A stretch of DNA of 63,137 nucleotides, the filler included, from an uncultured bacterium (lineage in GTDB: Bacteria > DAOPZR01): the NCBI GenBank assembly GCA_964637655.1. It is 23 parts of 23 records of this genome, joined end to end, with 100 filler letters (N's around TTAATTAATTAA, not from the genome) between each part and the next. Parts side by side here need not be neighbours in the genome. Positions count along the whole stretch, not along the records: positions 44,795 to 47,362 come from CAZWUZ010000401.1; 22 more parts are not named here. One strand, written 5' to 3'. Each line of letters starts with the position of its first letter. The first letter of the stretch is position 1. The position numbers were made by a program, and so were the translations under genes. Shown piece after piece: positions 2,980 through 47,362 of the stretch. The notes beneath the pieces are model-generated. The model was given only the letters and a program-made list of their open reading frames with translations, had not been told where the DNA came from and searched no databases.

Positions 2980-4460
2980 GCCGCCACCTCCTCGCGCGCC
3001 ACGGCCACGTCGCTGAACGGCCGCTTCTCCGTGCCGATAATCTGGTATTCCTCGTGTCCCTTGCCGGCGATCAGCACCGTATCGCCGTCACGCGCCTCAC
3101 GCACCGCCAGCGCGATTGCCGCCCGCCGGTCGGGTTCCACCCGGTACGGCATGGTCGCGTCCATCCCCGCCACGATCTCCGTGATGATCGCCTGCGGGTC
3201 CTCCGTGCGCGGGTTGTCCGACGTCACAATGGCCAGGTCGCTGCCGCGCCCGGCGATCCCCCCCATCAGCGGACGTTTGCTGCGGTCGCGGTCGCCGCCG
3301 CAGCCGAACACGGTCAGTACCCGCCCGCGGGTGCACTCGCGCACTGCCGCCACGGCTTTATCCAGCGCGTCAGGAGTGTGCGCGTAATCGACGAGGATGG
3401 TGAAGGGCGCCCGCACCGCGACGCGTTCCAGCCGCCCGGCCACCTGCGGCGCCCGCTGCAGGCCGTCGACGATGGCTTTCGCCGGGGCACCGACCGCGTA
3501 CGCCGCCGCCGCCGCCGCCAGCGCGTTGGCAATATTGTGCCGCGCCAGCAGCGGCAGTTCCAGCACCTGGCGCTCGCCGTCAAGGCGCAGCATGAACCGG
3601 CTGCCGCGTGCCGTCAGCGCGATTTCCTCCGCCGCCACCGTCGCCCCGCGCCGGCGCCCGCCGTCGCTGCTGAAGGTGATGATGCGCCCGCCCGCTTCGC
3701 CGGCGAGGCGCGCCCCGTAGTCGTCGTCGAGATTGACCACCGCCGCGCTCTCCGGGCCGCGCCGTTGCGCGAATATCCTGCGCTTGGCCGCGAAGTACGT
3801 CTCCATGTCATGATGGTAGTCGAGATGGTCGCGCGTCAGGTTGGTAAATACCGCCGCGTCGAGCGGCAGCCCCTCGACCCGCCGCTGGTCGAGCGCGTGC
3901 GAGGAGATTTCCATCGCCGCCGTCTGCACCCCCGCCGCCACCGCCTCCTGCAGGAACGCCAGCAGGGTCAGCAGGTCGGGCGTGGTGTTGGGCGCCGGCC
4001 GGTCGGTATTGCCGATGCGGTAGGCGATGGTGCCGATCACCGCCGTGCGCCGGCAGCGCGCCGCCTCGATGCTCTCGAGCAGATGCGTGGTCGTCGTTTT
4101 GCCGTTGGTGCCGGTGATGCCGATGGTCGTCAGCGCCCGCTCGGGATGGCCGAACCAGCGCGGGGCGATGACCGCCAGCGCCGCCACCGGGTCGTCCGCG
4201 ATGAGCAGCGCCGGCCAGCCGGCGCCCGCCGCCGCAGCATCGGCGACCAGCGCCGCCACCGCTCCCTGCGCCCGCGCCTGCGCGAGGTACCGGTGCCCGT
4301 CGACCCGCGTGCCGCGCAGGCAGACGAAGAGCGTTCCCGCCCGCACCTGCCGGGAATCGGCGGTGAGGTGGCTGATGACGACGCTGCCGTCGCCCTGCAG
4401 CGCGCACGGTGCTCCCTGCGCCAGCGCGCCCAGTTGCCTTGTCGTTGCGTCCCCTCCCAT
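2967..4460 (-). CDS. murE: UDP-N-acetylmuramoyl-L-alanyl-D-glutamate--2,6-diaminopimelate ligase
   Basis: GITGTNGKTTT, NTTPD, MEISSHALDQ, FTNLTRDHLDYH, DYAHTPDAL, FGCGGDRD, DNPR (meso-DAP specificity motif) and AGKGHE. Confidence 0.97.
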   Translation of the reverse strand: MGGDATTRQLGALAQGAPCALQGDGSVVISHLTADSRQVRAGTLFVCLRGTRVDGHRYLAQARAQGAVAALVADAAAAGAGWPALLIADDPVAALAVIAPRWFGHPERALTTIGITGTNGKTTTTHLLESIEAARCRRTAVIGTIAYRIGNTDRPAPNTTPDLLTLLAFLQEAVAAGVQTAAMEISSHALDQRRVEGLPLDAAVFTNLTRDHLDYHHDMETYFAAKRRIFAQRRGPESAAVVNLDDDYGARLAGEAGGRIITFSSDGGRRRGATVAAEEIALTARGSRFMLRLDGERQVLELPLLARHNIANALAAAAAAYAVGAPAKAIVDGLQRAPQVAGRLERVAVRAPFTILVDYAHTPDALDKAVAAVRECTRGRVLTVFGCGGDRDRSKRPLMGGIAGRGSDLAIVTSDNPRTEDPQAIITEIVAGMDATMPYRVEPDRRAAIALAVREARDGDTVLIAGKGHEEYQIIGTEKRPFSDVAVAREEVAACRS

Positions 4461-44794: not shown

Positions 44795-44849
44795 CGGCAC
44801 TCGGAGGAGAATACTGTGGTTGAAAACGGGTTATTTCAACAACCTGTTA
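44795..44849. mobile_element. Probable IS terminus (IS5-family-like end)
   Basis: The first 55 nt of the contig end in TTTCAACAACCTG-TTA, resembling CAGGYTGTTGAAA-type inverted repeats with a TTA/TAA target. Confidence 0.5.
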
Positions 44850-44929
44850 AACATCGGGGACGGAGCTCAAGTTATTAAGTTATGGCACAAGCCTTACGAT
44901 GACAGCATGATACGCGCCGGGGTAGACCA

Positions 44930-45136
44930 ATGAAAGAATGGCATTGCGATAAGTGCGGGATGGATTTTGCCGCGGCGGCGCAGCCGGAGAAATGTCCTGC
45001 CTGCGGCGGCATGGAGGTTGCACCGCGCGTTTCTCCCATGTTGTTGTCCGGCAAATTGAAGGAACGCTACACCTGCGACGGCTGCGACAAGAAGGGCACC
45101 TGCGATCCCGCCGACAAGTACAAGTGCTGTGACTAA
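44930..45136 (+). CDS. Small Cys-rich rubredoxin/Zn-ribbon-like protein (68 aa, 9 Cys)
   Basis: WHCDKCG...CPACGG, then CDGC...C...CC. Overlaps the next start. Confidence 0.7.
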   Translation: MKEWHCDKCGMDFAAAAQPEKCPACGGMEVAPRVSPMLLSGKLKERYTCDGCDKKGTCDPADKYKCCD

Positions 45137-45638
45137 ACTGAAAATCACAGCAATTGTCGTGGTGACGCTGTTCCTGGGAACATGGTTTATCGCATCGAAA
45201 ATCAGTGACAAGCATGGACAGTTTCTCGCAATGCACCGGGTGTCCGAAATCTACGACAACCACATATCCGACCAGTTCAGCGTGCTTGAAGACGAGATGT
45301 TTGCGGTTGGCCCGGAGGCGTTCCAGGATTCGCTGCCGCTGGCGAGCGTGCTAGCGGATACGGTGTTTACCAGATGCTGGAAGACGCAGCAGGAATTCCG
45401 CTGGCTGCGTCTGCCGCAGCAGCCGGAACGAATCCTCATCTGGTGTCCGGAAGCGCATTACACGGTTGACGAACGGCAGGTGCATGCAGGGATGATTACG
45501 GATTTTTCCGTTCGCCGCGTGGAGTGGGTCATCATCGCAGCACCATTCGTCCCGGAACAGCCGGACCGCATGCTGTTGCTGCCGACCCCGGCCTACTGGA
45601 AATTCGATCATCGCGGTACAGACACAGGAACTTCGTGA
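45129..45638 (+). CDS. Membrane-anchored hypothetical protein
   Basis: N-terminal TM helix. Overlaps both neighbours. Confidence 0.6.
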   Translation: MTKLKITAIVVVTLFLGTWFIASKISDKHGQFLAMHRVSEIYDNHISDQFSVLEDEMFAVGPEAFQDSLPLASVLADTVFTRCWKTQQEFRWLRLPQQPERILIWCPEAHYTVDERQVHAGMITDFSVRRVEWVIIAAPFVPEQPDRMLLLPTPAYWKFDHRGTDTGTS

Positions 45639-46621
45639 TGGAATTGCTTGCCGGATTGCTGCTGTCGTTCGTGCTGCCGCTGGTCCCGGCGCTGGCGTTT
45701 ATCGCGCTGCTCTGGTGGCTCGACCGCTACGAGCGCGAACCGCTCTGGCTGCTCACGGTCGCCTTCCTCTGGGGGGCGGTGCCGACTATCCTGCTGTCGC
45801 TCGTCGTGCAACTGGTGCTTGCCGTGCCGGTTGACGCCATGTTCGGCGACTCGCTGGCCGGGGCGCTGGCGGGGGGGAGCATCATCGCACCACTCTCGGA
45901 AGAGGGGTTCAAGGCGCTGCTCGTGCTCGGGCTGTTTTTCCTGTACCGGCGCGAGTTCGACGGTCCCCTTGACGGCATCCTCTACGGCGCGCTGGTCGGG
46001 TTCGGCTTCTCGGTGGTCGAAGACGCGATGTATCTGCTAAGCGCGCTGCATGAGGGCGGATGGGGCCAGTGGGGCGTGCTGGCGGCGCTGCGTGTCGGGC
46101 TGTTCACGCTCAACCACTCGCTCTTCACGGCGATGACCGGGCTCGGCTTCGGCCTGGCGCGCCTCTGCGCGCGCTGGTGGCCGAAACCGCTGCTCATCCT
46201 CGCGGGCTTCGCGCTGGCGGTGTTCCTGCACGCGTTCCATAACGCGGGCGCGGCGCTGGCGGAGACGACGGGCGGCTTTTCGTTCCTGCTCATCCTCGCC
46301 GTCGACTGGCTCGGTGCGGTGCTGATTTTCTTTCTGCTGCTGCTCTTTGCGCAACTCGAGAAGGGATGGCTGAAGGAGCTGGCGACGGAAGTGGCAAGCG
46401 GACTGCTGACGGCGGAGGAATATCGCGTTGCCGGCAGTTATCGCGCCCGTTTCGCGGATGGATGGCGCGTGCTCTTCCGGCAGGGACCGCTGCCGTGGTG
46501 GCGGGCGCGGCGGCGTATCGCCCTGCTCACCGAACTCGCCTACAAGATACATCAGCGCGCGCTGACGGGTGACGCGGGGTATGACCGGCTTATTGACGGA
46601 CTACGGGCGCGCCTGCGCTGA
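45638..46621 (+). CDS. prsW: PrsW family intramembrane protease
   Basis: LDRYEREP, APLSEEGFK, DGILYGALVGFGFSVVED, HSLFT and LHAFHN. Confidence 0.92.
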   Translation: MELLAGLLLSFVLPLVPALAFIALLWWLDRYEREPLWLLTVAFLWGAVPTILLSLVVQLVLAVPVDAMFGDSLAGALAGGSIIAPLSEEGFKALLVLGLFFLYRREFDGPLDGILYGALVGFGFSVVEDAMYLLSALHEGGWGQWGVLAALRVGLFTLNHSLFTAMTGLGFGLARLCARWWPKPLLILAGFALAVFLHAFHNAGAALAETTGGFSFLLILAVDWLGAVLIFFLLLLFAQLEKGWLKELATEVASGLLTAEEYRVAGSYRARFADGWRVLFRQGPLPWWRARRRIALLTELAYKIHQRALTGDAGYDRLIDGLRARLR

Positions 46622-46637
46622 CGGGATGAGGACGATG

Positions 46638-46814
46638 ATGACGGACGGGAACGGGGAGCGGGCGGCAAAGGAACTGCACGAAGGGGAACTGGAACGCGTC
46701 AGCGGTGGCGGCGGCGCTTACTGTTCACCGCCCGCCGGGGTGCGCGAGCAGGCGCAGTGCCAGCAGGGGCAGGCCTACTGCGCGACCTGCCAGTACCGCA
46801 CAGGGAATGCGTAG
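46638..46814 (+). CDS. Double-glycine-leader peptide precursor (bacteriocin/RiPP-like), Cys-rich core
   Basis: GAGGA RBS. Leader ...KELHEGELERVSGG, core GGAYCSPPAGVREQAQCQQGQAYCATCQYRTGNA. Alternative ATGs at 46626 and 46635. Confidence 0.75.
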   Translation: MTDGNGERAAKELHEGELERVSGGGGAYCSPPAGVREQAQCQQGQAYCATCQYRTGNA

Positions 46815-46817
46815 GGC

Positions 46818-47362
46818 TCAGGTCGGCCCGTAGCCGCTGCCGATAGCGGAGAAGGGAAGCTCCAGCCCGAGCGCGGGCACCTGTTGTCCAATCCAGGCGA
46901 TGAAGGTGTTGCTGTTGGGACCGGGGAAGGCGGCGTAGGTGTCCGCCCACGGGTAGGTGCGCGCGGCGGCATCAACCTGGTCGATCAGCGCGTCCACACC
47001 GTCGCCCTGATGCGCCTTGAGCAGGCGCGGCGCATTGCCATACCAGCGGCGGTCGGGCACATCCTGCTCAATGCGCACCAGCGGCAGTCCGCGCCGCTGG
47101 CGGAACCCGATGACTTCGTAGACCGTATAGGAGGTATCGCCTGTATGCTTGGCGGCAATCCATGTGTGGATGGCGAACCACCCGCGCCAGCCGTACGTCG
47201 AGGCACCATAAACGTGCAGCACCGCGTCGCGGGTGGTGGTTGGCTCGGGCGCGATACCGGCTGACTCGCGACTCGCGGTGCGCCAACTCCCCGAGCTGCC
47301 GGCACACCCCGCCCCGATAGCGACGAGGATGAGCAGCAGCACGACGGCAAGGCCAATCCGCT
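46818..47362 (-). CDS. DUF3750 family lipoprotein, 5' partial
   Basis: WRTASRESAGIAP, WRGWFAIHTWIA, PDRRWYG and PGPNSNTFIAW. Confidence 0.8.

Follow-up and report, generated by a model that had tools for sequence, protein, structure and literature searches.

A four-cysteine peptide with a double-glycine leader, probably exported in trans by a shared NHLP-type system in a sparsely sampled bacterial phylum

Results

A small gene encodes a double-glycine leader and a four-cysteine core

Here, we describe a small gene in a 63,137-base stretch of DNA from an uncultured bacterium of the lineage DAOPZR01 (assembly GCA_964637655.1); the whole stretch that was analyzed is referred to as the window. 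The gene (46638-46814, plus strand) encodes a 58-residue peptide in which a leader ending in Gly-Gly precedes a core with four cysteines. Its product is probably a substrate of a shared NHLP-type exporter, encoded elsewhere in the genome, which would cut off the leader and release the core in trans. This reading builds on the leader residues kept between two genera, on the resemblance of the leader to others of the same genome, and on the presence of a C39 exporter in both genomes that carry the gene. In the first-pass annotation of the window, the gene was proposed to encode a small double-glycine peptide that is secreted or modified, with its processing in trans; the in silico evidence supports that proposal.

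The window chains approximately 23 short contigs of about 2.6-2.8 kb each; every spacer between them consists of 44 N, then 12 bases, then another 44 N, and neighbourhoods that span a spacer are not real. The peptide gene lies on contig C401 (2,568 bases, window positions 44795-47362), which makes about 1.8 kb of upstream and 0.55 kb of downstream context visible. The host genome bin, G000, comprises 485 contigs and 3.99 Mb at 65.5% G+C, with an estimated completeness of 90.55% and contamination of 3.64%. In the species-genome set that was searched, the phylum is represented by two genomes, each about 90% complete: G000 and G001, the latter from a different genus of the same family. Among the sequencing runs listed for the organism, none is of RNA.

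Read directly from the sequence, the gene consists of 58 codons and a TAG stop (46812-46814). A Shine-Dalgarno-like GAGGA (46628-46632, plus strand) is separated by 5 nt from the ATG at 46638, and additional in-frame ATGs lie at 46626 and 46635. The product reads MTDGNGERAAKELHEGELERVSGG followed by GGAYCSPPAGVREQAQCQQGQAYCATCQYRTGNA. Its 24-residue leader (46638-46709, plus strand) closes with the letters ...LHEGELERVSGG, an end also given as KELHEGELERVSGG, in which Gly-Gly occupies residues 23-24, i.e., positions -2/-1 relative to the core, and in which L-12, L-7 and V-4 are present. The 34-residue core (46710-46811, plus strand) carries cysteines at core positions 5, 17, 24 and 27, a spacing of C-x11-C-x6-C-x2-C. 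The reading frame, ribosome-binding site, leader and core are thus as the first-pass annotation had given them. Its remark that annotation would easily miss the gene did not hold: a word-based search of 5.8 billion proteins returned the 58-residue product as an already called protein, and returned the window's own product alone.

The G+C content of the open reading frame (ORF) is 0.83 at third codon positions (GC3) vs 0.58 at second positions (GC2), the same pattern as in long real genes of G000. Because of this coding-type GC3, an orthologue in G001 and the top rank of the ORF in a leader profile of its own genome, both described below, we regard it with high confidence as a real gene. An AlphaFold2 model of the peptide showed no confident fold (mean predicted local distance difference test score, pLDDT, of 46; predicted template modelling score, pTM, of 0.20) and was unusable.

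The residues conserved in the leader are those expected at a C39 peptidase

Searching G001 with the peptide identified an orthologue at C9:7340-7510 (E 1.4e-6), with an intact frame and an AGGGAG ribosome-binding site at the same 5-nt spacing from its ATG. The ORF is thus conserved in the only relative available. The orthologous core is also 34 residues long, with all four cysteines in register, and the two cores are identical at 14 of 34 positions (C5, P8, A9, V11, R12, A15, Q16, C17, G20, Y23, C24, C27, R30 and A34). Ser/Thr is conserved at a single core position (core 6), against the four cysteines. The internal echo GGAYC/GQAYC pointed out by the first-pass annotation is present in the peptide; it is not kept in the orthologue and is probably due to chance, since the latter has MTYSC/GESYC instead.

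Leader identity between the orthologues amounts to 6 of 24 residues: Met1, L-12, L-7, V-4, G-2 and G-1. Met1 and the Gly-Gly aside, the shared residues are therefore exactly V-4, L-7 and L-12. According to the portion of PMC6363468 consulted, the C39 domain binds the leader through hydrophobic residues -4, -7 and -12 in a groove of the protease; cleavage is blocked there by charged replacements at Val-4 or Leu-7 and by most mutations of Leu-12. A logo of the 13 residues preceding the cut in NHLP, Nif11 and TIGR01847 precursors, as given in the sections of PMC2887384 used here, displays acidic residues at 1, 4 and 6, Leu at 2 and 7, Ser/Thr at 3, Val/Leu at 10 and Gly-Gly at 12-13. The segment ELHEGELERVSGG fits seven of the eight features of that logo. 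The same sections give a mean leader length of 24 residues for the TIGR01847 class vs 70-83 for N11P and NHLP.

The leader belongs to a larger repertoire within the genome. A strict motif search of G000 in six frames returned 14 matches: the peptide ORF, one spurious-looking match, and 12 other ORFs on contigs C20, C31, C42, C207, C244, C258 and C312, which are small with Cys-, Gly- or Pro-rich tails. A looser motif scan was too noisy for use. When a profile was built from the 12 other leaders and run against 74,713 six-frame segments of G000, the peptide ORF ranked first among the segments outside the training set (E 0.013, 17.6 bits); two ORFs of NHLP type on C85 and one resembling Nif11 on C97 came next. 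Two of the sister ORFs, on C20 and C31, match TIGR03798 (76.4 and 66.2 bits, respectively). Sister precursors, which the first-pass annotation had thought worth seeking, thus number at least 12.

Two further loci of this repertoire were recorded as separate observations. On C207, at approximately 3860-4100, two tandem double-glycine-leader ORFs have Cys-free cores with the common ending ...EPFLPG(Y/T)Y and may constitute another unnamed small peptide family. On C312 (3581-4099, minus strand), an NHLP-like precursor matches TIGR03793 with 46.8 bits, slightly below the 50.9 cut-off; it has a Gly/Asn-rich, Cys-free core and adjoins a TPR-methyltransferase gene.

A C39 exporter is available in both genomes

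A C39-ABC exporter was one of the components that the first-pass annotation looked to, and one of NHLP type is present together with HlyD and TolC-like partners. G000 holds a single match to the C39 peptidase family (PF03412), on contig C158, outside the window. There, genes for a TolC-like protein (PF02321, 109 bits), a HlyD-type adaptor (TIGR03794, 269.9 bits vs a cut-off of 156.2) and a C39-ABC protein stand in a row. Because its gene runs off the contig end, the last of these aligns to TIGR03796 over profile positions 1-371 of 710, and its 521.5 bits stay under the cut-off of 853.3 that applies to the full length. Q13, C19, H92 and D108 are invariant among 38 aligned sequences (the C158 domain and 37 homologues). 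From general knowledge of the C39 fold, we take these to be the oxyanion Gln and the Cys/His/Asp catalytic set, and since they are invariant, the domain looks active. G001 likewise contains, besides the peptide gene, a full set of TolC-like, HlyD, ABC1 (717 aa) and ABC2 (981 aa) genes, the exporter lying on one contig. Phylogenetic profiling reported in the parts of PMC2887384 consulted tied the NHLP-type export system to NHLP and N11P precursors.

The C39 domain (residues 1-150) and the peptide were submitted together to complex prediction on our own alignments, of 38 rows for the domain and two for the peptide. The pair scored 0.34, the best of three controls being 0.00; at least 72% of contacts agreed between runs, and the partner pLDDT was at least 48. 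Of 157 solved complexes, 116 attained the mark applied to this score, as did two of 215 mismatched pairs; passes at 0.60 or lower comprised 18 of the 157 solved complexes and both of the passing mismatches. The pass may also reflect memory, because like complexes have already been solved, and the prediction lends weak support to binding.

Two features of the export locus of G001 were noted in addition. Directly behind the TolC-HlyD-ABC1-ABC2 operon lies a gene for an ECF-type sigma factor (C91, 8167-8742), and at C91 8877-9428 a 183-residue zf-HC2 anti-sigma-like protein is encoded, which has a double-glycine motif near its C-terminus (...LDDDELLEVAGG) followed by a 28-residue tail. It is possibly an anti-sigma factor cut by the exporter peptidase; searching G000 with that query gave no counterpart.

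Candidate maturases are numerous in both genomes

LanM and radical SAM/SPASM genes, also named by the first-pass annotation, are present. SPASM-domain matches number 30 in G000 and 23 in G001. Two nif11-like peptide radical SAM maturases of TIGR04064 (587.4 and 562.8 bits vs a cut-off of 518.7) adjoin the Nif11 precursors on C20 and C31, and two maturases are related to PapB (NF047865, 239 and 237 bits). C20 further encodes ScmF (TIGR04251, 471 bits vs 400), followed by a second radical SAM/SPASM ORF. A LanM-sized frame with a LanC-like domain (PF05147, 112.4 bits) lies on C31, with another in G001, and a B12-radical SAM gene on C42. The 25 other SPASM-bearing ORFs and the C85 gene, 26 in total, were scanned against NCBIfam; five of the 26 had a family match at E<=1e-30, and no ORF attained any curated cut-off. 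No match to YcaO was found in G000 or G001.

The region around scmF contains an observation in its own right. At C20 7178-9820, ScmF and the second radical SAM/SPASM ORF are followed by a double-glycine-leader ORF (...LNDGELARVSGG) with a five-Cys core, in which an in-frame TAG stands between a good ribosome-binding site with ATG and the leader, which may point to gene breakage, to an error in sequencing or to read-through. To our knowledge, the precursor of the SynChlorMet cassette has not been identified, and the C20 ORF is a candidate for it.

The peptide appears restricted to its lineage

Searches beyond the two genomes returned little. The peptide was searched against 61 genomes and matched at E<=1 in 26 of them; the matches were convincing only in G000 itself and in G001, all others having E 0.0115 or worse and some containing internal stops. 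A profile of the two orthologues, run against 1.84 billion representative proteins, recovered only those two members; a repeat protein and a leader-repeat protein from the same search were judged spurious. When JGI metagenome contigs were scanned with a pattern, 600 matches emerged, of which none was confirmed. The best score in the ESM Atlas was 0.86, under the 0.9 level, and its matches are leads only. A PDB sequence search with the peptide returned nothing below E 0.88, and Pfam and NCBIfam nothing relevant at E<=1. We conclude from these comparisons, which did not include a literature search aimed at the core itself, that the sequence appears lineage-restricted; the gene is of an ordinary and well-known kind.

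The peptide gene sits at a variable position behind prsW

Upstream of the peptide gene, contig C401 carries an ORF for a 68-residue zinc-ribbon protein (44930-45136), Cys-rich with weak rubredoxin-like matches and a Cys/Asp-rich C-terminal tail; a 169-residue ORF without a Pfam match (45129-45638); and the intramembrane protease gene prsW (45638-46621, plus strand; PF13367, 128.6 bits; 327 aa). The TGA stop of prsW (46619-46621) lies 16 nt before the peptide ATG. Since the first ORF overlaps the second by 8 nt and the second overlaps prsW by 1 nt, the three ORFs and the peptide gene look like one operon. A promoter scan of the contig returned no sites where 0.4 would be expected, and is uninformative for this organism. 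On the other side, a convergent DUF3750 gene (46818-47342, minus strand; PF12570, 163.8 bits) has its stop 3 nt past the peptide stop and a frame open to the contig end. The placement stated in the first-pass annotation, directly behind prsW (ending at 46621) and with a convergent DUF3750 gene next (from 46818), was confirmed. Its description of the gene as an orphan stood in part: the contig carries neither maturase nor transporter beside it, and this status is partly an artefact because the contig is only 2,568 bases long.

The surroundings in G001 are different. There, the gene is flanked by rsgA and by a 78-residue ORF, then TPR genes; the 78-residue ORF has no family match, and no homologue of it was found in G000. 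Beyond rsgA, 1.4-3.2 kb off, lie an NHLP precursor (TIGR03793, 56.7 bits vs 50.9) and its radical SAM/SPASM gene. Synteny with this NHLP/radical-SAM cluster was considered and rejected, the cluster being on C85 and rsgA on C37 in G000. Neither prsW nor DUF3750 was found in G001. The C401 PrsW has ordinary PrsW proteins as its closest homologues: one shares 78% identity with it and the remainder approximately 54% or less, and some are labelled Anaerolineae. A role of prsW as dedicated partner or immunity gene was likewise rejected: it was not found in the peptide-bearing G001, and a close relative keeps prsW and DUF3750 without the peptide.

This relative was detected when contigs from public runs were aligned to C401. 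In run X6, record 16 (1,554 nt, depth 6) aligns from 45706 through prsW to 46611 with 91 differences in 906 nt, and resumes on the DUF3750 side at 46836-47360 with 51 differences in 525 nt, joining prsW to DUF3750 without the peptide gene. A 224-nt segment (46612-46835) that contains the whole peptide gene is thus replaced by 14 other letters in a relative of about 90% identity. Of two other X6 contigs, one (151 nt, depth 2) spans 46696-46844 with 11 differences and joins the peptide gene to DUF3750; the other (814 nt) shows 86 differences and extends over the first two genes of the operon. Among these close relatives, the operon and DUF3750 are constant and the peptide gene alone is present or absent, a result drawn from single low-depth metagenome contigs that needs confirmation. 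Since one relative lacks it, the gene behaves as a small variable cassette of approximately 0.2 kb.

The peptide gene is enclosed by an 18-nt inverted repeat (46601-46618 and 46816-46833), whose arms fall almost precisely on the two ends of the 224-nt segment; they are 78% complementary and include a perfectly paired core of 8 bp. At its length and G+C content, the repeat is at about chance level, and it might be a hairpin remnant between the convergent genes.

Discussion

We consider it probable that the gene encodes a precursor for a shared NHLP-type exporter. The 24-residue leader would form a short helix and bind, through L-12, L-7 and V-4, to the hydrophobic groove of the C158 C39 domain; the exporter would cut after Gly24; and the four-Cys core would leave in trans through the HlyD-type adaptor and the TolC-like channel. 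The exporter would be shared with the many Nif11- and NHLP-type precursors of G000, the peptide gene having no dedicated partner of its own. On whether the core then stays untailored by any dedicated enzyme, as in class II bacteriocins or microcins, with its cysteines forming disulfides or binding metal after export, we are almost evenly divided and offer this part only tentatively. It is suggested by a leader that keeps only exporter-binding residues and a core better conserved than the leader, and by a gene that moves alone and is flanked by no enzyme in either genome. The role would likely lie in competition or signalling between cells.

Several observations weigh against this explanation. 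Position 3 of the logo in the consulted sections of PMC2887384 is His in the peptide, not Ser/Thr, and the G001 leader fits fewer of its features. In a result that also goes against the first-pass annotation, no curated double-glycine model in Pfam or NCBIfam matches the peptide at E<=1; TIGR01847, a model of 15 positions, matched six other places in the whole of G000 at E<=10 and left the peptide ORF unmatched. No small membrane immunity gene adjoins the peptide gene in G000 or G001, a transmembrane predictor not having been run. A single contig at depth 6 represents the relative without the gene. Exporter and peptide gene are on separate contigs, in a bin of 485 contigs with 3.6% estimated contamination, so the co-residence of peptide and exporter rests on binning; the pairing is repeated in two bins, G000 and G001. 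As for disulfides, searches of the two genomes, each about 90% complete, turned up no DsbB and no VKOR, which weakens this sub-reading and favours enzymatic thioethers or metal binding. Some multi-Cys microcins need the DsbAB of the target cell, according to the portion of PMC12219008 consulted, so the producer's apparent lack of DsbB is not decisive.

That same lack of matches argues for the main rival, a true RiPP (a peptide made on ribosomes and modified after translation) whose four invariant cysteines would be converted to thioethers in trans, by a radical SAM/SPASM enzyme of ranthipeptide or sactipeptide type or by LanM, before the leader is removed. Radical SAM/SPASM genes are unusually numerous (30 and 23), two TIGR04064 maturases exceed their cut-off, and LanM occurs in both genomes. 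In G001, an NHLP precursor with its radical SAM/SPASM gene is found at a distance of 1.4 kb from the peptide gene, and the core begins with GGAYC, which resembles the GKGYC at the start of a Nif11 core on C31. That one enzyme can serve precursors dispersed over the genome is known for N11P and prochlorosins from the parts of PMC2887384 and PMC6363468 used here. Against this explanation, there is no flanking maturase on the 2.6-kb contig of G000, and the radical SAM/SPASM gene about 1.8 kb away in G001 has an NHLP substrate of its own, with rsgA between, while the corresponding cluster in G000 is on the separate contig C85. The leader is short and holds nothing conserved for maturase recognition beyond the exporter-binding residues, and neither a Nif11 nor an NHLP domain is present in the peptide. 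Conservation is higher in the core than in the leader (14/34 vs 6/24), the reverse of the conserved leaders and hypervariable cores described for NHLP and N11P in the consulted sections of PMC2887384. A single conserved Ser/Thr for four cysteines is poor for lanthionines, and the peptide gene alone comes and goes between close relatives. We give the RiPP explanation a sizeable but minority chance. Its boldest form, in which the peptide would be the founding member of a new radical-SAM thioether class (22-24-residue leader, phylum of two genomes, trans maturation by one of approximately 25 unassigned enzymes, shared exporter and mobile 0.2-kb cassette between convergent genes), appears rather unlikely.

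Quite improbable, in our view, is a non-exported cytoplasmic protein, in which the four cysteines would bind metal in a zinc-knuckle-like manner, the gene would be the last of the zinc-ribbon/ORF169/prsW operon, and the Gly-Gly would be fortuitous. CxxC with two more cysteines is a common metal-binding layout. The start 16 nt past prsW with no promoter-like site on the contig, the likewise small and Cys-rich zinc-ribbon product of the first operon gene, and the missing match to a curated leader model all agree with it. Yet the leader residues that were kept are exactly L-12, L-7, V-4 and Gly-Gly, and the ORF is the best match to the G000 leader profile outside its training set. The tie to the operon also loosens outside G000, given that the G001 gene is not near prsW, which was not found there, and that a close relative keeps the operon without the peptide gene; the AlphaFold pLDDT of 46 gives no positive support for a metal-binding fold. 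A chance ORF or decaying remnant without function would fit the small size, the lack of a family match, the two members among 1.84 billion representative proteins and the absence from one close relative. We regard it as very improbable in view of protein-level conservation over two genera with equal core length, Cys register and ribosome-binding-site spacing, coding-type GC3 and a frame intact in both genomes.

Together, our results indicate that a sparsely sampled phylum, with two genomes in the set searched, holds a large double-glycine peptide repertoire that would be served by a single exporter, in which short-leader peptides without a known family stand beside well-described Nif11 and NHLP precursors. 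Some interest attaches to the core, which belongs to no known family, to the cysteine chemistry in genomes that lack a DsbB or VKOR match and carry very many radical SAM/SPASM genes, and to the presence/absence polymorphism. The peptide could be synthesized or secreted heterologously at low cost, and with four invariant cysteines and no DsbB/VKOR match it would be a sensible subject for testing whether radical SAM enzymes mature it in trans. More broadly the lesson is a modest one, since scattered double-glycine precursors with a distant exporter have already been documented.

Comparison with known systems

The peptide shares with ranthipeptides and sactipeptides (PapB, SCIFF and TIGR04064-type) a short Cys-rich core in a genome rich in radical SAM/SPASM genes; unlike them, it has no maturase beside its gene on the 2.6-kb contig and no recognisable maturase-binding element in its leader. 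Although LanM is present, it is a poor lanthipeptide candidate, because one conserved Ser/Thr stands for four cysteines. With N11P (TIGR03798) and NHLP (TIGR03793) precursors, prochlorosins included, it has in common the 13-residue motif before the Gly-Gly and the exporter family present in G000 (TIGR03794/TIGR03796/TIGR03797), and G000 itself holds such precursors along with radical SAM and LanM enzymes. Many precursors per genome, some of them distant from enzymes and exporter, are a further likeness to what the portion of PMC2887384 consulted describes. In contrast to these families, the peptide lacks a long structured leader domain (24 residues vs a mean of 70-83 in that portion of PMC2887384) and its core is conserved rather than hypervariable; for want of that domain it falls outside TIGR03793 and TIGR03798.

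In its way of working, the peptide would resemble both the scattered N11P and NHLP precursors and class II (unmodified) double-glycine bacteriocins and microcins such as MccV with CvaAB-TolC; from the class II peptides it differs in several respects. It has no TIGR01847 match, and its exporter genes are unlinked to the peptide gene. In terms of the enterobacterial microcin signal pattern M...Rx[IL]x9G[GAS], position -14 is Lys in the peptide and His in G001, not Arg, whereas L-12 and the Gly-Gly fit. Classical microcins are also longer than a 34-residue core. The sections of PMC12219008 used here place microcin immunity genes of <=216 aa immediately adjacent, whereas the peptide gene is flanked by prsW (327 aa) and DUF3750 and has no adjacent small membrane immunity gene. 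The likenesses concern the leader and the route: like class II precursors, the peptide has a short leader of 24 residues with Gly-Gly, L-12, L-7 and V-4, and like some microcins in the consulted part of PMC12219008 it has several cysteines in its core. The microcin export route given there consists of a peptidase-containing ATP-binding cassette transporter (PCAT), a membrane-fusion protein and TolC, and G000 has the same series, TolC-like, HlyD and C39-ABC, in a row on C158.

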